Notes: generated by a model not told the origin, from the sequence alone. A stretch of 64,000 nucleotides of DNA from a candidate division WWE3 bacterium (GCA_014729135.1 WJKK01000001.1:192593-256592), one strand, 5' to 3'. Positions 42,214 to 54,717 are shown, counted from the first letter of the stretch. Numbers and translations: made by a program.

Positions 42214-44028
42214 CTAACTACTCAAAATTTTTCTAAAGGCTTCTTGGGGAACGTCAACAGAACCAATCCGTTTTAGACGCTCCTTACCTTTTTTCTGGCG
42301 TTCCAACAGCTTATCCTTGCGTTCCCGATGGCCGCCGTAAATCCCTTGCAAAACCGTTTTTCTCATAGCCGGAAGATTCTCACGTGCCACAATCCTGCCT
42401 CCAATAGCTGCTTGCAAAGCCACTTTAAACTGCTGCTTGGGCAGAATTTCTTTCAACTTCAGCAAAACATCACGCCCCTTACGCTCCGCCTCCCTACGCA
42501 AAACCATATGCGACAAGGGTTCCACCACATCACCATGAACCAAAATGTCCAACTTAACCACATCTGCTTGGCGATACTCCAAAAACTCATAATCCAAGCT
42601 GGCAAAACCTGACGAAGTACTTTTCAAATCATCAAAAAAGTTTGCTATCAGCTCACTTAAAGGAAGTTCATATTCAAAAATTACCCGGTTTTCAGTAGGG
42701 TACTCCATGGAGCGTTGCACGCCTCGCCGCTTTTCGCAAAGCGTAATAATATTGCCCACATACTCCGCCGGAGAAACTATATTTATTAAAATCCAAGGCT
42801 CTTCAATACTTTCAATTCTAGAACGATCCGGCATTTCCGAAGGGCGCTTAACAAACTCCGTTTCACCTCCCGTCAAATTTACCTTATATTCAACACTTGG
42901 AGTTGTAGAAATTAGCTCCAAATTGTACTCGCGTTCTAAACGCTCTTGAACCACATCCGCATGCAAAAGCCCCAAAAATCCACATCTAAAACCAAACCCT
43001 AAAGCCCCGCTACTTTCCGGTTCATAAGTTAGGGCTGCATCAGATAAGGCCAGCTTTTCCAGTGCTTTGCGTAAATCCTTAAAATCGTCATTTTCAATAG
43101 GATAAATTGACACAAAAACAAAAGGCTTAATTTCCTTATATCCCGGCAAAGGCTGCACGTCTTCTTTTTGGTTGTAGTAAGTTAGCGTATCGCCCACGTG
43201 AATTGAGTGGATGTCCTTTAGGCCTGTAGCCACATAGCCCACTTCGCCGGTTTTAAGAGTGCCTGTCTTTTTTCTTTGAGGCGTAAAGATGCCTATTTCT
43301 TGAACTGTTGCTGCTTTTTGTGATGCTAAGAAGTAAATTTCCTCGTTTTCTTTGGTCTTTTGAAGCGTGCCTTCTGTTATTTTTACTACAGCCACAACTC
43401 CCAAGTAGTCGTCGTAAAATGTATCAAAGATTAGCGCTTTAAGAGTTTTTTCGCGTTCTTTTGGAGTTGGAGGAGGCACTTTTGTAATTAGCTCTTTTAA
43501 AAGAGTCTCTACATTTTCTCCGGTTTTAGCCGAGACTCTAAGGATTTCCTCTCTTTTAAAGCCAAACGTGTTTATAAGATCTTGTTCTACTTCGTCGGCT
43601 TGATGACCTTTAACGTCGATTTTGTTGATAACGGGAATTATGGTGAGGTCTGCTTCTAGGGCTTTGTAAACGTTGGAGACGGTTTGGGCTTCAATTCCTT
43701 GTGTGGCGTCAACAACGAGGATTGCTCCTTCGCAAGCTGCTAATGAGCGGGATACCTCGTAGGAGAAGTCGACGTGGCCGGGTGTGTCTATGAGGTTTAG
43801 TTGGTAGGTTTGGTTGTTGTCTTTCCCAAAGGAATAGTTCATGCGCACAGCTTTAAGCTTTATAGTAATTCCCTTTTCGCGCTCCAAATCCAGCTGATCC
43901 ATGGTTTGCTCTTTAAGTTTGCGTTTTTCCACGGTTCCTGTAATTTCCAGGAGTCTATCTGCTAACGTAGATTTTCCATGGTCGATGTGAGCAATTATGC
44001 AAAAGTTTCTAATATTTTTTGTGTCCAT
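42214..44028 (-). CDS. lepA: Translation elongation factor 4 (LepA)
   Basis: G-domain IIAHIDHGKSTLADRLL and DTPGHVDF, plus the LepA C-terminal domain. Start placed at MDTKNIRNF (ATG 44026-44028); the ORF track extends to 44181. Confidence 0.9.
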   Translation of the reverse strand: MDTKNIRNFCIIAHIDHGKSTLADRLLEITGTVEKRKLKEQTMDQLDLEREKGITIKLKAVRMNYSFGKDNNQTYQLNLIDTPGHVDFSYEVSRSLAACEGAILVVDATQGIEAQTVSNVYKALEADLTIIPVINKIDVKGHQADEVEQDLINTFGFKREEILRVSAKTGENVETLLKELITKVPPPTPKEREKTLKALIFDTFYDDYLGVVAVVKITEGTLQKTKENEEIYFLASQKAATVQEIGIFTPQRKKTGTLKTGEVGYVATGLKDIHSIHVGDTLTYYNQKEDVQPLPGYKEIKPFVFVSIYPIENDDFKDLRKALEKLALSDAALTYEPESSGALGFGFRCGFLGLLHADVVQERLEREYNLELISTTPSVEYKVNLTGGETEFVKRPSEMPDRSRIESIEEPWILINIVSPAEYVGNIITLCEKRRGVQRSMEYPTENRVIFEYELPLSELIANFFDDLKSTSSGFASLDYEFLEYRQADVVKLDILVHGDVVEPLSHMVLRREAERKGRDVLLKLKEILPKQQFKVALQAAIGGRIVARENLPAMRKTVLQGIYGGHRERKDKLLERQKKGKERLKRIGSVDVPQEAFRKILSS

Positions 44029-44059
44029 ACTGGAGGGATTATACAGGAGTTTTGGGGAT

Positions 44060-45043
44060 TTAAGCTGCAGGAAGGGCGTAGATAATTCCCATGACCACAA
44101 GTCCCCATAAAATAACCGTGAAAAACAAAGGCTTGTCTGAAAGCAGAACTCGTGCAGGTGATTCCCCCTCTTCGCGCTCATAAATAACGTACAAATAACG
44201 CGCTACTCCATAAATAACAACAGGAATAGTTAACATCATCCACTTGGGACTGCGCAAAGTAGAGGGCAAAAGCTCCGTTAAAATGTTGCCGGCCCCTTGA
44301 GGTGAAACCTGAAATGTAAAAAGAGCATAAGTCATAATGCATAAGGACGAAGACATTGAAATCATGCTGTCCAAAAGTGTATCCGGATAATGACGAAGCG
44401 TTTTTCGAGTGTCGCCGTCCTCTTCGTTAAATTTTCTCAAAAGCGTTTTCTCGGATCGGCGCTTTCCAAAAGCCATTAAAAGTGAAAGACCAATAGTAGT
44501 TAAAGCCAACCAGGAGGAGAGCGATGTGTTGGTTCCAAAGCCTCCTGCAAAAACGCGAATTACAAATCCTGTAGCCACAACTAAAGAATCTAAAATGATT
44601 ACGTTTCTAAAGTAAAGTGAGTACAAAAACTGCATGACGATGTAGGCAATGACGCTTAAGGTGAAGAAGGTTCCCACCGCGGTGTAGGCAAAGACCAGAG
44701 CAAAAAGGATTAAGCCGACTGCAATTACCCAGGCTGTTTTGATTCCTACTTTTCCGGAGGCAATAGGTCTGTTCTTTTTTACAGGATGTTTGCGGTCTTT
44801 TTCTACGTCGTTAATGTCGTTGATGAAGTAAGCTCCCGAGGAGATTGCGGAGAAAGCAATGAAGCATTTAGTAGCTGTCCAGATGTTTTCGTCTGAGAAC
44901 AAAGCTCCGGAAAAGAAGGGAGCTGCAAAGACGCTTAGGTTTTTAAGCCATTGGCGCGGGCGCGCGGTTCTTACAATTTGATATAGTTTTCCGATCATCT
45001 TTAGCATTAGCTTAATGATAGAGTTTTCGCCCTTTTTTCGCAA
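44060..45043 (-). CDS. UbiA-family prenyltransferase (decaprenyl-phosphate phosphoribosyltransferase-like)
   Basis: RPRQWLKN and the NDINDVEKD Asp-rich motif. Polytopic membrane protein. The true start may be a downstream Met. Confidence 0.65.
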   Translation of the reverse strand: MRKKGENSIIKLMLKMIGKLYQIVRTARPRQWLKNLSVFAAPFFSGALFSDENIWTATKCFIAFSAISSGAYFINDINDVEKDRKHPVKKNRPIASGKVGIKTAWVIAVGLILFALVFAYTAVGTFFTLSVIAYIVMQFLYSLYFRNVIILDSLVVATGFVIRVFAGGFGTNTSLSSWLALTTIGLSLLMAFGKRRSEKTLLRKFNEEDGDTRKTLRHYPDTLLDSMISMSSSLCIMTYALFTFQVSPQGAGNILTELLPSTLRSPKWMMLTIPVVIYGVARYLYVIYEREEGESPARVLLSDKPLFFTVILWGLVVMGIIYALPAA

Positions 45044-45106: not shown

Positions 45107-45841
45107 CTACTTCATTATCGACTCATCACTGTCATCAAAAACATATCCAAGCCCGTAAACAGTTTTAATCAAATTAGCGGCATCAAATCCCATTTCCTCA
45201 AATCTTTCCCTTAAGTAACAAACATAAACAGAAACTATTTTAGGGTTATCTATTTTTTCATCTCCCCAAACCGATTCCAAGATTTGTTCTTTAGATAAAC
45301 GAAATCCCTTGTTTGTAACCAGCAATTCCAAAAGGTCAAATTCCTTTCTTCGCAAATGAATTTCCTCACCTTTATAAATTAAAATTCGATTCCAAAAATC
45401 AATTGAAACGTCGCCAATTTCGTAAATATTGTTTTTGGGAATTGCTGGAGTGGTTCTTCGAATTAAAGTTTTTATTCTTGCGCACATTTCCGCGGGTGAA
45501 AAGGGGCGTTCTAAACAGTCATCTGCTCCGCGTTTTAGGCAACTTACTCGCCCTGAAACTCCTCTTTTTTTGTTTAGCATTAAAATGGGAATATCTGTTC
45601 CTTTTTGGCGCAGCATTTGGCAAACTTGGGAGCCTCGCATACTTGTAAGATCGTTATCTAGAATTATTAGACCGTATTTTTCAGAAGTTGCTGTATACAA
45701 GGCATAGGAAGCTTCTTTTTCAATATCGCAGACATACTTATCGGCAAGACACTTTTTCAGGTCTTTTATTAAATTCTTATTGTCGGCAATTATTAATATT
45801 TTCATTTTGGTTGTTGTAGCAACCTCCTTCATCTTTAACAT
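45107..45841 (-). CDS. OmpR-family response regulator (receiver + winged-helix output), orphan
   Basis: Receiver domain (KILIIADN...LIILDNDL) and a C-terminal trans_reg_C domain (LRRKEFDLLELL...YGLGYVF). No adjacent histidine kinase. Confidence 0.75.
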   Translation of the reverse strand: MLKMKEVATTTKMKILIIADNKNLIKDLKKCLADKYVCDIEKEASYALYTATSEKYGLIILDNDLTSMRGSQVCQMLRQKGTDIPILMLNKKRGVSGRVSCLKRGADDCLERPFSPAEMCARIKTLIRRTTPAIPKNNIYEIGDVSIDFWNRILIYKGEEIHLRRKEFDLLELLVTNKGFRLSKEQILESVWGDEKIDNPKIVSVYVCYLRERFEEMGFDAANLIKTVYGLGYVFDDSDESIMK

Positions 45842-46054: not shown

Positions 46055-46423
46055 ATGCCCAAATTTCTTTACACAATACTTTTAACTAACATTCTCTCTT
46101 GGGCCGCATTTTTTAGAATCATCTTTACAAAAACACCAAACACAACAAATGCACTCTTTATTTTTCTCATTTTGTTTGGCCTTTCCACGTTTTTAACCAC
46201 CTCCGTTTTTAGCTATTTTCTAAAATCCCGTCAAAAGCACGGCAAATTCCACAATCCCCGTTTAACCTATCGCCAAGGCCTAAAATTCTCACTAATTCTT
46301 AGCCTAGGCCTCTCCACACTCCTGGGACTACGCCTTTTTAAAATCCTAAATCTCCTTACAGGAAGTATATTCCTACTCCTTTTCGTATCTGTTCTAATGG
46401 TCACAACTTCAAATCGGCGCTAA
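46055..46423 (+). CDS. Hypothetical membrane protein
   Basis: 122 aa with 4 TM segments. Confidence 0.35.
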   Translation: MPKFLYTILLTNILSWAAFFRIIFTKTPNTTNALFIFLILFGLSTFLTTSVFSYFLKSRQKHGKFHNPRLTYRQGLKFSLILSLGLSTLLGLRLFKILNLLTGSIFLLLFVSVLMVTTSNRR

Positions 46424-46512
46424 ATTTGTTAGAATAAGGGTACTGTTCAGCAGCTTTTGCTATTCGGTATTTAGAAAGGCTGTTAAAGTTTAAAGTTAAA
46501 GAAAGGCATTTA

Positions 46513-46932
46513 ATGGATAATCACGTTTACAAATTTAGAGTTTGGCATAAGGAAAAAGAGTACATGTATGAAAATATAGCTATGGGGCTTAATGGAAAGG
46601 TTTTGTATTCTCGAGGAAATCCTAAGAAGCGCGGTCCTGACTGGTATGTTAGTGAGGAGTTTAGCGAGGATACTGTGCCCATGCAGTTTATAGGTCTTAA
46701 GGATGATAAGGGCAAGGAGATTTATGAGGGGGATCTTTTAAAGATTGGTGCTCAGGAGAATTTGGCAAAGGTGTTTTGGAATCCGGAAAACGCTCGTTTT
46801 GAACTGGAGTTTTTGGAGGAGGAGCGTGTTATTGGGTTTGAGGATAAGCGTTCTTTGCGTGGTGTGAAGCTAGCGGGAAATATTTTTGAGCATCCTGAGT
46901 TGTTAGAGGAAGACGGGGAAGAAGAGGAGTAG
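46513..46932 (+). CDS. YopX-family protein (phage-associated)
   Basis: KFRVWHKEKEYMY...FIGLKDDKGKEIYEGDLL matches the YopX signature. Confidence 0.6.
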   Translation: MDNHVYKFRVWHKEKEYMYENIAMGLNGKVLYSRGNPKKRGPDWYVSEEFSEDTVPMQFIGLKDDKGKEIYEGDLLKIGAQENLAKVFWNPENARFELEFLEEERVIGFEDKRSLRGVKLAGNIFEHPELLEEDGEEEE

Positions 46933-46942
46933 GTTAAACCGC

Positions 46943-47605
46943 ATGACAGCCATGACATCCAAAGAAAAAATGGAAAAAGGGTGGAAAGCACGTGAGGCTC
47001 ATGAATTTGAGGAAGCGGAAAAACTGCTTCGCGAAGCCCTGGAAGAATTTCAGGAAAAAGAAGATTGGTTTAATGCTACTGAATGCTTGAATCACTTGGC
47101 CTATTTAAAAAAGATTCAATCAAAACTAGCCGCAGAGGAGGGTTTTTCTTTGGCAAAACAGGGCCTTGAGCTGGCGGAAAAACATGGCTCTAAAAAGGTT
47201 CATGTTTACAGGTCTTTAAGGTCACTTTCCGATGAACAGGGCCGTTTTGAAAAGGCTTTGGAGTATGCGGAAAAGTGCTTGGAAGGTTATGAAAATCCCA
47301 TGAGTAGGGCAGATATGCAAAGTCATATAGCTTTGTATAAAATGCGAACGGGCCGTTTGGAGGATGCAAAAGAGTTAGCGGAACAGGCTTTAACGACTCT
47401 GGAGACTCATTGGGAGGAGGAACGGGAGCCTCATCGTTCGATTTGGAAGACAAGTGCTTTATTGGTTCTAGGGTTGATTGCTTACAATGGAGGCTTTCTA
47501 GATCAGGCGCATGATTACGGCGAGGAAGCTCTGGAGTTAGCGGAGAAGGCCGATTCAAAAACGCGAATTTTGCAAGCTAAGCAATTCTTAGACCTTTTTT
47601 CTTAA
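46943..47605 (+). CDS. TPR-like helical repeat protein
   Basis: 220 aa, all-alpha with repeated LA/EKAL segments. Confidence 0.35.
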   Translation: MTAMTSKEKMEKGWKAREAHEFEEAEKLLREALEEFQEKEDWFNATECLNHLAYLKKIQSKLAAEEGFSLAKQGLELAEKHGSKKVHVYRSLRSLSDEQGRFEKALEYAEKCLEGYENPMSRADMQSHIALYKMRTGRLEDAKELAEQALTTLETHWEEEREPHRSIWKTSALLVLGLIAYNGGFLDQAHDYGEEALELAEKADSKTRILQAKQFLDLFS

Positions 47606-47704
47606 GTGAGGCTCGAGAAATAACAAAGACACCCTTATGAGACCTAAGATTTCTCAAGTTCTATTTTGATTTCCCTCTAATGCAAAATGTGATAAAATGC
47701 ATTC

Positions 47705-48292
47705 ATGAGTAGTCGAGAAAAATCTGCCAAAAAGTTTCCAAAAATATCAAATTTCAAATTCTCTCAGGAGGACTACATCCTCTATCTTTTAAATCAACCC
47801 GCTTTAAAAGAGGCAGATTTTTACAGAATCAATAAGCTGGCCTTTTTTGTGGAATTTGGGTACATCTACAAAACATCCCGTGAACTAACTCCCCTTAAGT
47901 ACGCCGGAATTAACAAAGGCCCCGTAATAAATGACTACACTTCTCTGTTCGCTAAGATGGAAGCTAAAGGGCTTATTAAAATTTCTTCAGGGTTTAAAGT
48001 TTCTCCGCTTGTGAAGCCTTCCAAAAACCCTCCAAAGGATGTGAGAGCATGCATTGATTCCCTAATAGAGGAGTATGCATCCCTTTCAACATCTAAGCTA
48101 ATTGCTTTGTCACATGAAACAGATTCTTACAAAATAGCTACTGAAAATGAAGAAGTGATGGGTGCCGTCATAGACAAGAACCTGGCTCATTTAGAGGCAT
48201 TTTTTGAAGATTCTGCCGATCGTTTAGATGAAACGACAGTTAATGCGCTTCCTCCTGTAGAGACCGAACTTGAAGCGTATGCCTTTGGATGA
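47705..48292 (+). CDS. Panacea-domain (DUF4065, SocA-like) putative antitoxin
   Basis: NKLAFFVEFGYIYKTSRELTPLKYAGINKGPV resembles DUF4065. Overlaps the downstream RelE-like gene by 23 nt. Confidence 0.5.
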   Translation: MSSREKSAKKFPKISNFKFSQEDYILYLLNQPALKEADFYRINKLAFFVEFGYIYKTSRELTPLKYAGINKGPVINDYTSLFAKMEAKGLIKISSGFKVSPLVKPSKNPPKDVRACIDSLIEEYASLSTSKLIALSHETDSYKIATENEEVMGAVIDKNLAHLEAFFEDSADRLDETTVNALPPVETELEAYAFG

Positions 48293-48593
48293 GGCGTATA
48301 CTATTCTTGTAAGTAGAAAATTCAATAAATATGTTAAGAAAAAACTTCCTCGTTCTTTAAAAAAAGCTTTAGATCGCAAGGTAAAGTTTCTGGCTCAAAA
48401 CCCCTATCATACAAGTCTCAATACAAAAAAGTTAAAGGTTAGTCGAAGGCGTTTAAGAGACTTAGAGGTGGATCATGTTTATGAGTTTCGAATAAATATG
48501 GGATTTAGGTGTGTCTTTTACGTTAGGAATAAAACCAAAACTATTATTTTGGCTAGGGTTGGTAATCATGGGGATGTTAGGACTTGGTTTTAG
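48270..48593 (+). CDS. RelE/ParE-superfamily toxin-like protein
   Basis: Shows KKALDRKVKFLAQNPYHTSLNTKKLK....HVYEFRINMGFRCVFYVRNKTKTIILARVGNHGDV, which follows the RelE/ParE pattern. Confidence 0.5.
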   Translation: MKRMPLDEAYTILVSRKFNKYVKKKLPRSLKKALDRKVKFLAQNPYHTSLNTKKLKVSRRRLRDLEVDHVYEFRINMGFRCVFYVRNKTKTIILARVGNHGDVRTWF

Positions 48594-48733: not shown

Positions 48734-49981
48734 ATGCTTTATACAAAACTATTTGGTAAAACAAAAAAAGAAACTCCGGCGGATGAAGTAAGTAAAAGTG
48801 CGCGGCTTTTAATTCAGGCCGGTTACATTCAAAAAGAAATGGCGGGAGTCTATGCGTTTCTCCCTTTGGGGAAGCGTGTTTTAGACAACATTATTCAAGT
48901 GATCCGTGAGGAAATGGAAGCAATTGGAGGACAGGAAATCCATTTGGGGGCACTTCAGAATCCTGAAATTTGGGAAACTACGGATCGTTGGAGTGATGAG
49001 GGCATAGACGTGTGGTTTAAAACGCAACTTAAAACAGGTGCAGAAGTAGGTTTGGCTACAACACATGAGGAACCTTTAACAAAACTGGTTAGTCAGTATG
49101 TGCAGTCTTATCGGGATTTACCTGTTTATTTGTTTCAGTTTCAAACCAAATTTAGAAATGAGCTGCGTTCAAAAAGCGGAATTCTAAGGACGCGCGAGTT
49201 TATCATGAAGGACCTTTATTCCTTTAATACGACTGGAGAAGCCCTTGATACTTTCTACGAAGAAGCTCAAACGGCCTATTTTAAAGTGTTTAATCGGCTA
49301 GGGCTTGGTGACAAAACTTACCTTACATTTGCCAGTGGGGGGCCTTTTAGTAAGTATAGTCATGAATTTCAAACTATTTGCGATGCCGGCGAAGACACCA
49401 TTTACGTGGACGAGGAAAAAAAGTTAGCGGTTAATGACGAGGTTTATACAGATCAAGTTCTTCAAGATTTGGGACTTGAGAAAGAGAATCTCAAAGAAGT
49501 ACCTGCTGTAGAAGTTGGAAACATTTTTAAACTTAAAGATAAATATTCAAAGCCTTTAGGTCTAACTTATACAGATAGCTCCGGTGTAGAAAAGCCCGTT
49601 ATTATGGGAAGCTATGGTATTGGTCCTGCTCGCTGCATGGGAACAATAGTCGAGGTTTTAGCCGATAAAGAGGGAATTGTGTGGCCCGCGGAAGTAGCTC
49701 CTTTTAAAGTTCACATTGTTGGTTTAGGTTTGCAAAACGCGGAAGTAGCCGAAAAAGCGCAAAAAATCTACAAGCAACTCCAGCAGGAAAAAGTAGAAGT
49801 TCTTTTTGACGATCGCGCCGATGTTAGCGCCGGTGAAAAATTTGCCGATGCAGATTTAATAGGCATTCCCTACCGTTTAGTAGTTTCCGGCAAGACCTCC
49901 GAGAAAATAGAATTTAAAGCGCGCAATGAAACAGAAGCAAAAATGTTAACTCTGCCTGAAATTCTGGCAGAAATTAGCTAG
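48734..49981 (+). CDS. proS: Prolyl-tRNA synthetase (short, editing-domain-less form)
   Basis: Class II aaRS. LIQAGYIQK..GVYAFLPLG..V and QFQTKFRNELRSKSGILRTREFIMKDLYSF (motif 2) are present, with an anticodon-binding C-terminus. Confidence 0.85.
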   Translation: MLYTKLFGKTKKETPADEVSKSARLLIQAGYIQKEMAGVYAFLPLGKRVLDNIIQVIREEMEAIGGQEIHLGALQNPEIWETTDRWSDEGIDVWFKTQLKTGAEVGLATTHEEPLTKLVSQYVQSYRDLPVYLFQFQTKFRNELRSKSGILRTREFIMKDLYSFNTTGEALDTFYEEAQTAYFKVFNRLGLGDKTYLTFASGGPFSKYSHEFQTICDAGEDTIYVDEEKKLAVNDEVYTDQVLQDLGLEKENLKEVPAVEVGNIFKLKDKYSKPLGLTYTDSSGVEKPVIMGSYGIGPARCMGTIVEVLADKEGIVWPAEVAPFKVHIVGLGLQNAEVAEKAQKIYKQLQQEKVEVLFDDRADVSAGEKFADADLIGIPYRLVVSGKTSEKIEFKARNETEAKMLTLPEILAEIS

Positions 49982-50008: not shown

Positions 50009-51508
50009 ATGCCCATTCAAGAACAGCAATTAAACAATAAGCAGCACGCCGTTCCCCAAAACATTATGCAAGTGGAGTTTAAGCTAATTGGGGAGTTGAC
50101 GATGCGTCAGTTTGTTTATGTGGCGGTTTTCGCTGTAGCAGCTTACATGGCTAAGCTGTCTGTTCCGCAGCCTTTTACTTGGTTTTTTGTGATTGGTTTG
50201 GCCTTAACGGGATTGGCTTTGGCTTTTGTGCCTTTTGAGGAGCGGGGTTTAGACGAATGGATTGTAAACTTTTTAACTGCAATTAGTTCCCCCACGGAGC
50301 GGATTTGGCGTAAGGAAGCGGAGGTTCCTTCGGTTTTTGCTTATGAGCAGAATCTTAGGTTTGTTCAGCAGGAGATGATTACGTTGGCTCCAACGGCAAG
50401 TCGTCGTAAGTTGGAGGAGTTTTTGCATCAGCGTAAAACTCAGGTTGATGATGACGATTATCTTGACATTCCCGAGCAGGAGTATATTGACAAGGTTCGC
50501 GAGGCTTTTAAGGATGTTGAGGAGGTTTCAGAGGAGGGTTTTGAGGGAGAGACTATGGAGTCTTCTGTTAAGGTAACCCATGAAATGGAGCAAGAGGAGT
50601 TAGAGATGCAGGAAATGCAAGAGCATTCTGACCAACCGGAGCAGGGGGAGCTTGAGGAGAAGCCGGAAATAGAACAAGAGGTACCTCAGAGTCAAGAGGA
50701 GGAGTTGAAAGAAGAGCAACTCCCACAGGAATCTCCTGTTGAGAAGGTTCAGGAGGAAGAAAAAGTGCAAGCAGCTGAGGTTCTTCAGGAGGCTTCGCAA
50801 CAGGAACCTCCCGCAATAGAAAAGGCAAAGGCCACAGTGCAGCAGGTTCAAACGAAAACGCCTTCTGCTGCAGCATCAAAAACACAGGAATCTCAAAAAA
50901 CAAAGCAGCAAGCAGAAAAACAGGACAAAATGTCCAAACTAATTCAATCTCGCTTAAAGAAGTCTCGTCTTAAACCGCTAGATGAAGGAAAGTCAGGTCA
51001 AGCACAGCTTCGTCCGGTGTCCACACACTCCGGAAGGAAATTTGTGAACCTAACTCCCGGGCAAGGTGAAATTATACTCCCAATTAGGGGAGAAAAAGTT
51101 CTTCCCACAGTAGAAGAAACTGAACGACAACTTTCGGAAAAAACTAAGAAATTGCAGCAGCTTTTGGATAAGGACGGCAAAGACGATGGTGCCAAAGATG
51201 GCAAAAAACTTCATGTTCGAAAAATCCCTTCGCTAGTTCAACGCCCCAATGTTTTATCAGGGGTTGTAAAAAATCGCAAGGATGAATATTTGGAAAACGT
51301 TGTAGTTGTAGTTAAAAATGAAGAAGGCGAACCGGTACGAGCTCTAAAAACCGACAAACTAGGCAAATTCTTAATTTCATCGCCGCTTCCAAACGGCAAT
51401 TACAAAATTGAGGTTGACAAGACAAATGAAACCAGCCTTTCCTTTGATATAATTCCTTTTAAGGTCGAGGGAGGTGTTTTGCCTTCTTACGAAATTATAG
51501 GTCGTTAA
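50009..51508 (+). CDS. Membrane protein with 2 N-terminal TM helices, long E/Q-rich low-complexity linker and C-terminal CarboxypepD_reg/PEGA-like beta domain
   Basis: TM segments near the N-terminus. Acidic repeat region (EEQ/QEE). C-terminal VVKNEEGEPV...GNYKIEV. Confidence 0.4.
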   Translation: MPIQEQQLNNKQHAVPQNIMQVEFKLIGELTMRQFVYVAVFAVAAYMAKLSVPQPFTWFFVIGLALTGLALAFVPFEERGLDEWIVNFLTAISSPTERIWRKEAEVPSVFAYEQNLRFVQQEMITLAPTASRRKLEEFLHQRKTQVDDDDYLDIPEQEYIDKVREAFKDVEEVSEEGFEGETMESSVKVTHEMEQEELEMQEMQEHSDQPEQGELEEKPEIEQEVPQSQEEELKEEQLPQESPVEKVQEEEKVQAAEVLQEASQQEPPAIEKAKATVQQVQTKTPSAAASKTQESQKTKQQAEKQDKMSKLIQSRLKKSRLKPLDEGKSGQAQLRPVSTHSGRKFVNLTPGQGEIILPIRGEKVLPTVEETERQLSEKTKKLQQLLDKDGKDDGAKDGKKLHVRKIPSLVQRPNVLSGVVKNRKDEYLENVVVVVKNEEGEPVRALKTDKLGKFLISSPLPNGNYKIEVDKTNETSLSFDIIPFKVEGGVLPSYEIIGR

Positions 51509-51511
51509 AAT

Positions 51512-52210
51512 ATGCCCAACATAACTGCCACAACACAACAACATTTAGACATTGAGGACATTCGGGATGATTTGGTAGTTTTAAAAAATGGGTCAGTGGC
51601 AGGTGTTTTAAAAACAACCGCAGTAAACTTTGATCTTCTTTCCGAAATTGAGCAGGATGCCATTATTGCAGCTTTTTCCATGCTTATTAATTCCATTACC
51701 TTCCCCATTCAGATTGTAATTCGGTCAAAAAAGCTTGATATTTCGGGCTATTTGGAAAAGGTGGTTCAGGTGGAAAATAAGATTGAGGATAAGTTACTGA
51801 AGCACCAGGCAGAGGCTTATCGTCGTTTTGTTCAGGAGACGATTCAGCAAAATGAGGTTTTGGATAAAAAGTTTTACATCATTATTTCCACAAATAAGCC
51901 TATCAGTAAGGAAGGTAGTGCTAATCCATTTGAGTTTTTCACTCGTTTGTTTGGGATGCATACTAAACGTAGGAGTTTTAACGTTGACAAGTCTTTGCGG
52001 GATGCAAAAATGGAGCTTGAGCCTAAATTGGGACATGTCCAAAAGGAGTTTCGCCGAATTGGAGTTAAGGCTGAGAAGTTGACTACTCAGGAATTAGTTG
52101 AGCTTTATTTTGATATTTACAATCCTAGTGCGGTGCATGGTCAGCGGATTCAGACGGATATAAATGATTATCAGACGGCTATAGTTAATCCGGCAATTTT
52201 TGAGGAGTAG
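51512..52210 (+). CDS. Hypothetical protein immediately upstream of virB4-like gene (possible T4SS accessory component)
   Basis: 232 aa, only 4 nt after the preceding gene. Contains DIRDDLVVLKNGSVAGVLK..VNFDLLSEIEQDAII. Confidence 0.3.
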   Translation: MPNITATTQQHLDIEDIRDDLVVLKNGSVAGVLKTTAVNFDLLSEIEQDAIIAAFSMLINSITFPIQIVIRSKKLDISGYLEKVVQVENKIEDKLLKHQAEAYRRFVQETIQQNEVLDKKFYIIISTNKPISKEGSANPFEFFTRLFGMHTKRRSFNVDKSLRDAKMELEPKLGHVQKEFRRIGVKAEKLTTQELVELYFDIYNPSAVHGQRIQTDINDYQTAIVNPAIFEE

Positions 52211-52275
52211 TTGGTTTTTAGAAACGTCATTCCGTGCTTGACACTGAATCAAGGAACCAAAAAGAAAAATAAAAA

Positions 52276-54717
52276 ATGAACATACCGTTTTTAAACAAGA
52301 AAAAAGAAGATAAAGCAGCAGAAAATCCGGGAGAGCAAATGGAAAACAAAGAGCCTGCAGAAACTCTAGCAGAAGGCATGGTAAACATTCAGGACATCAT
52401 TGCTCCTTCTGCAATTGAAGTTGATTTTAACCATATAAAAGTAGGTAACTCTTATTACAGAACGCTTTTTGTTTCAGGTTATCCTCGATTTGTAGGCGCT
52501 AACTGGCTGGCTCCCGTAATTAACTTTGAACACACGCTGGACATTTCCATGTTCTACTATCCGGTGAAAGCCAAAATGATTTTGGATGATTTGCGTCGTA
52601 AGATCACGGAGCTTGAGGCCACTTCCATGTCGGACCGCGAAAAAGGCAAGCTAACAGATCCCGCGGTTAAAGCTGCCCTCGAAGACGCCAATGCTTTACA
52701 AGAACAGCTGGTAAAAGGTATAGAAAAGTACTTTCAGTTTTCGTTTTACATTACAATTCCGGCATCGTCACTAGAAGAACTTAACAACGTTACAGCCAAA
52801 CTGGAATCCACGCTAGGTTCGCTGCTTCTAATCTCAAAGACGTCTACACTCCAAATGGAAGAGGCCTTTCAGTCGACGGTTCCAACAGGAATGGACAAAC
52901 TTCTAATTACTCGAAATATGGATACAACAAGTTTGGCTACAACTTTCCCATTTACGTCATCTGAGCTGACAATGGATGAAGGCATTATGTATGGGATTAA
53001 TCGGCACAATGGTTCGCTTATCATTTTTGATCGGTTTTCGCTGGAAAACGCTAACTCGGTAGTTTTTGCTAAATCCGGTTCAGGTAAGTCTTATTTTGTA
53101 AAGCTGGAAGCGTTGCGGTTAATGGTTTTTGGTGCAGAAGTCATGATTATTGATCCTGAAGAAGAGTATCGTACTTTGTGTGAAGCCGTAGGTGGAAACT
53201 ATATTGACTTCTCCGCAAATTCTCCGCAAAAGATTAATCCCTTTGACCTGTCAGGCATTGCGGTTGAGGGTGAAAATGAGCTTGGTCAAAAGCTGCTGTC
53301 GCTTCATACGCTGCTGAAGTTAATGATGGGGGATTTGAATCCTACGGAGGAGGCCATTCTGGACCGTGCTTTAATAGAGACTTATCGTCTAAAGGGAATT
53401 ACTTCCGATCCGGATACGCAAATGACAAAGGAGCCTCCGGTTATGGAGGATTTGTACAAAGTGCTTTTAGGCTCTGCAGAGGAGGAAGCTCATGGGATGG
53501 CGGAGCGTTTGGAGAAGTATGTTCGCGGGTCGTTGGCGGGAATCTTTGATTCGCAGACTTCTGTTGACCTAAATAGTGGAATGACTGTCTTTTCAACCAA
53601 GAATTTAGAGGAGCTTTTGCGACCCATTGCTTTTTACATTATTTTGGACTTTGTTTGGACTACGATTCGTCGCGATTTGAAAAAGCGTATTCTAATTGTT
53701 GAGGAGGCGTGGTACTTGATGGAAAATGAGGATAGTGCTCGCTTTATTTATGGTATTGCTAAGCGTGCTCGTAAGTATTACTTGGGGTTAACAACGATTT
53801 CCCAGGACGTTGACGACTTTTTGAAGTCTGAGTACGGAAAGGCTATTGTTACGAACTCTTCAATCCAGGTTTTGCTAAAGCAGCATCCGGCAGCTATTGA
53901 TTTGGTGGCAGAGACGTTTTACCTGTCAGAAGGAGAGAAGCGTTTGTTACTTGGTGCCGGTTTAGGTGAGGGGTTGTTTTTTGCAGGTACAAATCACGTA
54001 GCTATTCGTATTAAGGCTTCCCCGGAGGAGCATAAGTTGATTACGACAAATCCGAAGGAGCTTTTGAAGTTGCGTAAGGAGGGGATTATTGAGGAGAAGA
54101 AAAAGACGACTCCGCAGAAGAAGTACAAGTCTTTTAAGCCAACGGATACGGATAAGTATGAGACGTTTGATGAGAGTGGTAAGCCCAAGGAAGGATATAA
54201 GCCTCAAAGTAAGGAGGTCAAGTCAAAGTCATCTCAGGCGCAGGGATCTAAGAGCATCGCCTCGAATTCACCACAAGCACAGAATAATGTCATCCCGGAC
54301 TCGATCCGGGATCAACCTTCCAAAGAGGTCGCCTCGAAAGAAATGTTGCAGCGCCCCGCTCCGGAGAAGGCTCCCCAGAAGACGGACCTGCCTCCTCCAA
54401 CAAAGCCCCCAAAGCCCCCGGAAATTAAACCACCGGAAATAAAGCCGCTTGAGATAAAAAAATCACAAAATCACAGTAATGCGCAGGGCACTCCAAGGCA
54501 GCAACCGCAGAAACAAACCCCAGCGAAAAAACCTGCCGATAATAATACAGTGAAGCCCCCGCAAAGAGAACAGCCTCAACCACAGCCACAGACACAAGCG
54601 GAAAAGCAAAAGCCAAGTGAAACCACCATAATTGATCAAATGAACACATTGCGCCCGCAGAAAGGCGACTCTGCCGGTAGTATAGACCTAAAACCTCCTC
54701 AAAATAATAACCAATGA
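52276..54717 (+). CDS. virB4: VirB4/TrsE/TcpF-like type IV secretion (conjugative transfer) ATPase
   Basis: N-terminal VirB4-type domain (GNSYYRTLFVSGYP..WL), Walker A AKSGSGKS, IIDPEEEY motif, and Walker B ILIVEEAW. C-terminal Pro/Lys/Gln-rich tail with PPEIKP repeats. Confidence 0.75.
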   Translation: MNIPFLNKKKEDKAAENPGEQMENKEPAETLAEGMVNIQDIIAPSAIEVDFNHIKVGNSYYRTLFVSGYPRFVGANWLAPVINFEHTLDISMFYYPVKAKMILDDLRRKITELEATSMSDREKGKLTDPAVKAALEDANALQEQLVKGIEKYFQFSFYITIPASSLEELNNVTAKLESTLGSLLLISKTSTLQMEEAFQSTVPTGMDKLLITRNMDTTSLATTFPFTSSELTMDEGIMYGINRHNGSLIIFDRFSLENANSVVFAKSGSGKSYFVKLEALRLMVFGAEVMIIDPEEEYRTLCEAVGGNYIDFSANSPQKINPFDLSGIAVEGENELGQKLLSLHTLLKLMMGDLNPTEEAILDRALIETYRLKGITSDPDTQMTKEPPVMEDLYKVLLGSAEEEAHGMAERLEKYVRGSLAGIFDSQTSVDLNSGMTVFSTKNLEELLRPIAFYIILDFVWTTIRRDLKKRILIVEEAWYLMENEDSARFIYGIAKRARKYYLGLTTISQDVDDFLKSEYGKAIVTNSSIQVLLKQHPAAIDLVAETFYLSEGEKRLLLGAGLGEGLFFAGTNHVAIRIKASPEEHKLITTNPKELLKLRKEGIIEEKKKTTPQKKYKSFKPTDTDKYETFDESGKPKEGYKPQSKEVKSKSSQAQGSKSIASNSPQAQNNVIPDSIRDQPSKEVASKEMLQRPAPEKAPQKTDLPPPTKPPKPPEIKPPEIKPLEIKKSQNHSNAQGTPRQQPQKQTPAKKPADNNTVKPPQREQPQPQPQTQAEKQKPSETTIIDQMNTLRPQKGDSAGSIDLKPPQNNNQ

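Follow-up and report, generated by a model that had tools for sequence, protein, structure and literature searches.

Two overlapping genes on the plus strand, panA and panT, lie in the 64,000-nt stretch of DNA analyzed here (hereafter the window; GCA_014729135.1, WJKK01000001.1:192593-256592) and encode, respectively, a Panacea-domain protein and a small protein that most likely belongs to the RelE/ParE superfamily (Table 1). Genes for a small membrane protein, a YopX-family protein and a TPR protein precede the pair, and proS follows it. The source organism is a candidate division WWE3 bacterium, a member of the CPR/Patescibacteria. The original prediction had described overlapping ORFs for a DUF4065/Panacea-like antitoxin and a toxin with RelE/ParE-superfamily features, located downstream of YopX and TPR genes in a CPR-like genome, and each of these elements was recovered in the present analysis, with an adjustment to the start of the second gene.

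Table 1. Features of the panA-panT region. Positions are counted from the first nucleotide of the window.
Feature	Position	Strand	Remarks
Response regulator gene	45107-45841	-	opposite in orientation to the pair; flanks the region
Small membrane protein gene	within 46055-48593	+	upstream of the pair
YopX gene	46513-46932	+	Pfam, 70.8 bits; PHROG 98
TPR protein gene	46943-47605	+	upstream of panA
Candidate extended -10 element, TGaTAAAAT	47690..47698	+	read by hand from the sequence
panA, predicted Panacea-domain antitoxin gene	47705..48292	+	195 aa; ATG ORF; Pfam SocA_Panacea
PanA C-terminal tail, residues 148-195	48146..48289	+	low pLDDT, acidic, conserved motifs
Putative panA end/panT start overlap, 14 nt	48279..48292	+	homolog-based start
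panT, predicted RelE/YoeB/YafQ-like toxin gene	48279..48593	+	104 aa; start from homologs
proS	48734-49981		downstream of panT

A mechanical call placed the second ORF at 48270-48593 on the plus strand, with a TTG start, a product of 107 aa and 23 nt shared with the panA ORF. However, the Met equivalent to the ATG at 48279 is the first residue in all homologs of the small protein, and because every homolog begins at this position, the real start of panT is most likely this ATG, which yields a protein of 104 aa and an overlap of 14 nt. Such an overlap suggests translational coupling of the two genes. Among 26 loci, counted from the conserved ATG, it measures 29 nt in one and 11, 14 or 17 nt in the other 25. 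Dozens of conserved homologs were found for each of the two genes, and thus neither is a chance ORF. Identical proteins are named 'DUF4065 domain-containing protein' (PanA) and 'hypothetical protein GF360_01150' (the toxin) at NCBI. Throughout, residue numbers of the toxin follow the 107-aa ORF.

Between the candidate extended -10 element and the panA ATG lie 6 nt, which contain no Shine-Dalgarno sequence, and a TATAAT-like box is present 6-25 nt upstream of panA in most of the homologous loci. A generic promoter scan did not call the TGaTAAAAT element, and the promoter and terminator scan remained at background level. The putative promoter, together with its position, suggests a dedicated panA-panT transcript with little or no leader. 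A 'terminator-like' hairpin at 48277-48299, spanning the gene junction, was regarded as a chance feature or, at most, as a coupling element. No element was detected near the pair in an Rfam scan.

PanA matches the Pfam family SocA_Panacea (PF13274) with 39.4 bits over residues 43-142 of 195 (gathering score, 25.7), and its homologs carry precomputed PF13274 annotation. It also matches PHROG 1281 at 1.6e-10; among phages, no more than a marginal match was found. The score against the NCBIfam SocA_antitoxin equivalog is 18 bits (E 0.0017), compared with a cut-off of 190 bits, and because of this difference PanA is classified, by its profile scores, as a Panacea protein and not as a SocA ortholog. 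The AlphaFold model of PanA, built on 7 sequences only, has a mean pLDDT of 74, with a confidently modeled core spanning residues ~20-147. A Foldseek search of the PDB with this model gave nothing significant, and the weak winged-helix and DarTG matches were not taken as evidence; among viral models, the matches include one named 'Antitoxin SocA-like Panacea domain-containing protein'. Searches of PDB sequences with single sequences or small profiles of PanA and of the toxin yielded noise or non-significant RelE/YoeB matches, those to PARP9 and primase being attributable to chance. PanA has no recognizable DNA-binding domain, and autoregulation of the pair may therefore differ from that of the YefM and RelB/DinJ systems.

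Beyond the core, the 48 C-terminal residues of PanA form a strongly acidic tail (net charge -10.1) modeled with a pLDDT of 39-64. Two motifs within it, IDKxLAxLExFF and LPxxDxxxLxxYE, are kept across 26 loci and are separated by a variable acidic linker. The tail is probably intrinsically disordered, judging from the model, but the low confidence may instead reflect the shallow data (7 sequences). Taking the Phd-C type PanA described by Ernits et al. 2023 (PMC10440598) as a model, we propose that the tail is most likely the element that binds and neutralizes the toxin.

The small protein scores above the cut-off of no Pfam or NCBIfam toxin model. Its closest Pfam matches are ParE-like_toxin (24.1 bits; cut-off, 28) and ParE_toxin (20.6 bits; cut-off, 23), whereas NCBIfam YafQ and RelE_StbE reach 17 bits (cut-off, 87) and 14.6 bits (cut-off, 27.9), respectively, the match to YoeB being weak as well. 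PHROG 1213, 'RelE-like toxin', is matched at 3e-5. A profile search recovered 77 homologs. Scanned singly, these gave no matches outside the RelE/ParE clan (the families hit being ParE-like, Gp49, ParE, HigB and YafQ), and any one clan model reached E <= 0.01 in at most 17 of 76 homologs. Direct sequence searches of the PDB with the CPR toxin family were not significant.

The AlphaFold model of the toxin, based on a 76-sequence alignment, has a pLDDT of 87.9 and a pTM of 0.80, and displays a beta-alpha-alpha-(alpha)-beta-beta-beta-alpha topology (E11-14, H18-25, H28-43, (H59-65), E69-74, E79-86, E91-99 and H100-106). This arrangement contains the RelE/ParE-superfamily fold, namely, an N-terminal strand, a two-helix hairpin and a three-stranded antiparallel sheet, with a family-wide insertion of ~10 residues that forms the extra helix 59-65 between alpha2 and beta2 in the model. 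Foldseek matched the model with a probability of 1.00 to the archaeal aRelE (1wmi, E 2.7e-6), Staphylococcus aureus YoeB (7v6w) and Helicobacter pylori HP0892, as well as to YafQ of Vibrio cholerae and Escherichia coli, RelE of Thermus thermophilus and Methanocaldococcus jannaschii, and RelBE of Mycobacterium tuberculosis. All 13 PDB matches at E <= 1e-3 are RelE, YoeB, YafQ or HP0892 mRNases. The similarity to YoeB, YafQ and RelE amounts to target-normalized TM scores of 0.74-0.78 and rmsd of 2.3-2.9 A, and sequence identity to solved toxins is only 15-26%. Thus, the predicted fold of the small protein is that of RelE/YoeB/YafQ toxins and not a non-toxin fold. The protein is also strongly basic (pI 10.65).

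A second line of evidence came from shorter relatives. When 1.84 billion representative proteins were searched exhaustively with a profile, only ~10 clusters of the toxin family proper were retrieved, along with related proteins of ~90 aa. An alignment of 32 of these shorter sister-family toxins was compared in hhalign with that of the CPR toxin family, and the two were matched with 99.9% probability (E 6.8e-33). The NPxHPSL(N/R)TKK and GxH(D/E) motifs are common to both families, and the ~10-residue insertion is all that the sister family lacks. Pfam YafQ_toxin is matched by 12 of the 32 sister-family members and ParE_toxin by 10, and the sister-family profile retrieves from the PDB YoeB (7.7e-5), HP0892/HP0894 (~2e-3), RelE (0.03) and also HigB. 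Taken together, the confidently predicted fold and the profile link through the sister family indicate that the toxin most likely belongs to the RelE/ParE superfamily.

Polar residues that are invariant or nearly so across 76 homologs include K37, N51, T52, K53, E72, R80, Y84 and H100. Arg80, on beta3, is invariant, and at least 90% of the homologs retain His100, just past beta4; in the sister family, the equivalent of His100 is the sole invariant residue and that of Arg80 is nearly invariant. Catalysis depends on K52, K54, R61, R81 and Y87 in RelE and on E46, R65, H83 and Y84 in YoeB, residues situated on the sheet's open face and at the C-terminus. In HMM alignments, which are weak for all of these positions, Arg80 aligns with R61 of RelE and with the Arg of 'HQHR' in YoeB, and His100 aligns with R81 of RelE and with the C-terminal His of YoeB; E72 and R/Y74 align with K52 and K54 of RelE, respectively, with no YoeB residue assigned to either. 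The same weak sequence alignments place an aromatic residue 6-7 positions past His100, at the C-terminus. The positions aligned with Arg80 and His100 are ones that we take to be catalytic in RelE, YoeB and YafQ.

To assess how generally the two genes are associated, we surveyed one genome per GTDB species and found 25 loci encoding the toxin family proper, all in Patescibacteria. They are distributed over Woesebacteria, Blackburnbacteria, Daviesbacteria, Saccharibacteria, Andersenbacteria, Vogelbacteria, Taylorbacteria, Paceibacterota, Sungiibacteriota, Moraniibacteriota, Nealsonbacteria and others. In 24 of the 25 loci, the toxin gene is directly preceded by an overlapping gene for a PanA homolog (E 1e-64 to 1e-90) on the same strand, and the remaining locus is truncated by a contig end. 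The same pair was found on a separate metagenomic contig, in yet another gene context. Furthermore, PanA and the toxin have diverged in step, with a Mantel r of 0.74 between their pairwise divergences, a value that 0 of 2000 permutations attained, and therefore both genes have travelled together. In a Nomurabacteria genome, the toxin gene next to an intact panA is fragmented, a pattern expected of a harmful toxin. The pair is real and conserved, in keeping with the overlapping arrangement originally proposed, and it behaves as an autonomous two-gene cassette.

Members of the sister family occur with other partners. In a Curtissbacteria genome, a sister-family toxin gene follows that of an RHH/CopG antitoxin, and in a deltaproteobacterium, one follows the gene for a MazE/AbrB antitoxin. 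Because sister toxins sit with RHH or MazE/AbrB antitoxins, the toxin lineage appears, from these gene neighborhoods, to be one of classical type II toxins in which partners were swapped and PanA was taken up in the CPR branch.

We consider it probable that panA and panT constitute a self-contained bicistronic type II toxin-antitoxin (TA) module of the PanA-PanT kind, in which the toxin is likely a ribosome-dependent mRNA endonuclease. Acting as RelE, YoeB and YafQ do, such a toxin would cut ribosome-bound mRNA, with the help of Arg80, His100 and the C-terminal aromatic residue, and thereby arrest growth. PanA would neutralize it through direct binding, probably with the acidic tail of ~50 residues folding onto the toxin, much as the C-termini of RelB and YefM do, and the charges of the two proteins (a pI of 10.65 for the toxin and a charge of -10 for the PanA tail) are complementary. 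The Panacea domain itself might serve as a platform or scaffold, or as a sensor. Both genes would be co-transcribed from their own promoter and their translation coupled via the short overlap. Toxicity, RNase activity and the mode of binding are properties that we infer for the module, as is its possible role in addiction, in stabilizing a genomic region or in defense against phages.

As to that role, the module might function primarily in anti-phage abortive infection, with the Panacea domain sensing a cue and freeing the RNase. This possibility is compatible with the mechanism outlined above, as it concerns the role of the module rather than how the toxin and antitoxin act, and we hold it to be rather doubtful. 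A sensor role of the Panacea domain and a link between type II TA systems and defense were proposed by Ernits et al. 2023 (PMC10440598); restriction-modification methylases adjoin the module in a few loci, and the module is widespread but patchy over the CPR lineages. However, PADLOC matches neither PanA nor the toxin, the flanking genes are mostly of housekeeping function, and there is no clear defense-island context in the window. Unlikely, although a more specific idea, is that the insertion-bearing toxin and its dedicated PanA represent a TA lineage specific to Patescibacteria, which these genome-reduced episymbionts would keep for the useful work it does. Abortive infection triggered by phages, or an arrest of growth tied to attachment to the host, could be such work; the Panacea domain would then be the sensor of the cue, and helix 59-65 an adaptation of the toxin to the unusual ribosome of the CPR.

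The activity proposed for the toxin has to be weighed against a different one. RelE and ParE share a fold, and the fold alone cannot separate RNases from ParE-type gyrase poisons. To our knowledge, Arg and His at the positions of Arg80 and His100 are typically missing from ParE proteins, and PF05016 spans RelE-like and ParE-like proteins alike. We regard it as quite improbable that the toxin is a ParE-type DNA gyrase poison within what would otherwise be the same PanA-neutralized pair. The names of the two best Pfam matches, ParE-like_toxin and ParE_toxin, speak for this assignment, as do the presence of ParE among the CDD annotations of Panacea-associated toxins (Kurata et al. 2022, PMC8832971) and a Foldseek match to the 'YoeB/ParE toxin' 6n90, and the shared fold means that the Foldseek results are no bar to it. 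Yet both Pfam matches are below threshold, and the top structural matches, like the transitive sequence matches through the sister family, are all RNases, the sister-family profile having retrieved no ParE chain from the PDB at E <= 1. Because the Arg and His residues are conserved at what are probably the RNase positions and the sister family provides transitive homology to RNases, we favor mRNA cleavage over gyrase poisoning as the activity of the toxin.

A small mobile islet that would also carry YopX and the TPR protein was a further part of the original prediction, and this part was not upheld. Such an element, an islet or prophage remnant spanning 46055-48593 and made up of the small membrane protein, YopX and TPR genes and the pair, is improbable in our judgment. 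It is suggested by the phage-typical YopX family, for which only distant phage homologs (from Streptococcus, Fusobacterium and Vibrio phages) were found, and by the five genes all being on the plus strand, between the opposite-strand response regulator gene and proS. However, none of the small membrane protein, YopX and TPR genes recurs beside the module in the 25 other loci, the flanks of which vary and consist mostly of housekeeping genes (DnaE, GroEL, LepA, TruB, aminoacyl-tRNA synthetases and SmpB), a few loci being flanked by genes for restriction-modification methylases or NYN-domain proteins. No integrase or transposase was found between 40.7 and 56.2 kb, a repeat scan gave no flanking direct or att-like repeats above chance, and a tRNA scan found no tRNA within 30 kb of the pair, the nearest lying at 14 kb. 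The composition profile has no break, with a GC content of 0.34-0.44 across the region, as in its surroundings. Moreover, the pair has its own promoter-like element upstream, and no relatives of the toxin were found in IMG/VR or among GenBank phages. A search for empty sites covered 80 metagenome proS loci, none of which has any neighbor in common with the window; synteny around proS is uninformative because gene order there is not conserved in any relative found. A link between YopX and the TA pair is thus unsupported.

Finally, it is very improbable that PanA acts in a SocA-like manner, as a proteolytic adaptor passing a stable toxin to ClpXP (type VI) instead of inhibiting it by binding: the Pfam family is named after SocA and the SocA_antitoxin model is weakly matched, but the score is far below the equivalog cut-off, the partner has a predicted RelE fold rather than resembling the DnaN binder SocB, direct binding fits both the complementary charges and the conserved, predicted-disordered tail, and validated PanA antitoxins neutralize their toxins directly, in complexes with them (PMC8832971, PMC10440598).

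The type II PanA-PanT module that we propose is therefore to be seen against what is already known of Panacea (DUF4065), an antitoxin domain that partners dozens of toxin domains (Kurata et al. 2022, PNAS, PMC8832971). In the accessible text of Dataset S1 of that study, toxin clusters such as T14 and T28 have HHpred matches to HigB2, RelE, YoeB, ParE and YafQ, and entries of the T14/T28 type come from Methanobrevibacter, Cryosericum, Taylorella, Rodentibacter and Haloterrigena. The pairing of a Panacea protein with a RelE/ParE-fold toxin is thus already catalogued and fairly ordinary, and the term 'Patescibacteria' was not found in the accessible text of the dataset. Among the top-ranked full-text matches, no paper described a Panacea-RelE pairing in Patescibacteria. 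The novelty originally seen in such a pair in a CPR genome was accordingly overestimated: the kind of pairing was known from Dataset S1, and what is new is of limited extent, namely, a toxin subfamily that is confined to the CPR, carries a 10-residue insertion, is missed by curated models and is invariably coupled to one PanA subfamily. If active, the module would extend the PanA-PanT class into the CPR, where TA and defense biology is almost unknown. It would also provide a compact case of antitoxin partner swapping, one toxin lineage being associated with RHH, MazE/AbrB and Panacea antitoxins. In practical terms, current Pfam and NCBIfam toxin models miss the CPR family, which NCBI labels only as 'hypothetical protein'. 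The understanding of how such TA systems work is unchanged by the CPR module.

Of the known systems, the type VI module SocAB of Caulobacter shares with the CPR pair the Panacea domain in the antitoxin, but the CPR toxin is not SocB-like and a ClpXP-adaptor mechanism is not indicated. In the PanA-PanT pairs of Kurata et al. (PMC8832971), a Panacea gene lies directly upstream of a small RelE/ParE-fold toxin gene, with short overlaps between the two; compared with the descriptions of T14/T28, the WWE3/CPR toxin differs in its ~10-residue insertion and in falling below all curated cut-offs. Experiments have established that Panacea antitoxins neutralize their toxins and bind them in complexes (PMC8832971, PMC10440598). 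In Corynebacterium doosanense, PanA neutralizes the toxin Doc with a Phd-C tail, and a sensor role has been hypothesized for its Panacea domain (Ernits et al. 2023, PMC10440598). The CPR protein is laid out in the same way, its Panacea core being extended at the C-terminus by what is here proposed to be the neutralizing element, whereas the toxin has a predicted RelE fold rather than being Doc, and the tail has no detectable similarity to Phd-C, which consists of two Phd-like helices.

With YoeB-YefM, YafQ-DinJ and RelE-RelB, the CPR module shares the predicted toxin fold, the combination of a basic toxin with an acidic antitoxin, and the overlap of the two genes. The conserved Arg and His of the CPR toxin also align, albeit weakly, with the presumed catalytic positions of these toxins. 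The CPR toxin differs from YoeB, YafQ and RelE in the extra helix 59-65. The partner differs as well: the antitoxins of these three systems are of the Phd/YefM type or the ribbon-helix-helix RelB/DinJ type, whereas here a toxin of the same predicted fold is paired with an unrelated Panacea protein.

A single toxin lineage, that of the RelE-like toxin PanT, is accompanied by three unrelated antitoxin types. In addition to the Panacea antitoxin PanA of the WWE3 module, an RHH/CopG antitoxin accompanies a shorter, insertion-free relative of the toxin in a Curtissbacteria locus (L030, 3699-4219) and a MazE/AbrB antitoxin accompanies another such relative in a deltaproteobacterial locus (L032, 411-928), and it is from these two pairings that the exchange of partners is deduced. 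Furthermore, a locus of Candidatus Nomurabacteria (L029, contig JACKGF010000001.1, 3374-4300) encodes a whole PanA homologue of 195 aa, downstream of which the toxin gene is broken, its only remnants being an N-terminal ORF of 32 aa and a fragment that tblastn recovered out of frame. This homologue looks like an orphan antitoxin remaining after decay of its toxin.

In several loci of other genomes (L001, 4321-4734; L008, 1519-3372; L016, 4372-6186), the toxin-antitoxin cassette is adjoined by translation-related genes, namely those for SmpB, for LepA and for an aminoacyl-tRNA synthetase of class II. Within the window, the cassette adjoins proS, and lepA is located nearby. This adjacency may simply be a consequence of which genes small CPR genomes contain.

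Three genes located between the response regulator gene and the toxin-antitoxin pair (46055-47605) encode a predicted membrane protein, a member of the YopX family and a TPR protein. Only distant phage homologues of the YopX-family protein were found (33-42% identity), and none of the three genes was found again near the module at the other loci examined. Between the candidate -10 box (TGaTAAAAT) and the panA start codon there is no Shine-Dalgarno sequence, and many homologous loci display comparably short spacers devoid of such a sequence. The absence of this sequence, together with the proximity of the box to the ATG, suggests that the panA mRNA may be leaderless. At the other end of the pair, a scan for terminator-like hairpins called none in the 140 nt that separate proS from the stop codon of the toxin gene.

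Features surrounding the toxin-antitoxin pair
Feature	Coordinates	Strand	Length	Remark
LepA ORF, as mechanically listed	42214-44181	-	655 aa	
UbiA-family ORF	44060-45043			overlaps listed LepA ORF by 122 nt (44060-44181, -)
Predicted membrane protein	within 46055-47605	+	122 aa	
YopX-family protein	within 46055-47605	+		
TPR protein	within 46055-47605	+	220 aa	
Candidate -10 box and spacer to panA ATG	47690-47707			box ends 6 nt before ATG
Perfect palindrome TTGAGCTCAA	48676-48685		10 bp	in toxin-proS spacer
PrgI-family protein	50009-51508	+	499 aa	
Unannotated protein	within 50009-54717	+	232 aa	second-named of three genes
VirB4/TraG-type P-loop ATPase	52276-54717	+	813 aa	

Conserved LepA sequence begins approximately at the internal methionine in '...SSMDTKNIRNF', which indicates that the N-terminal extension of the listed ORF is probably not translated.

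Immediately 3' of proS lies a set of three genes (50009-54717), followed by those for a HolA-like protein and a sortase. The PrgI-family protein contains a long middle region rich in Glu, Gln and Lys and a CarboxypepD_reg-like C-terminus. Collectively, the three genes resemble the type IV secretion-like cluster that has reportedly been described for Patescibacteria.
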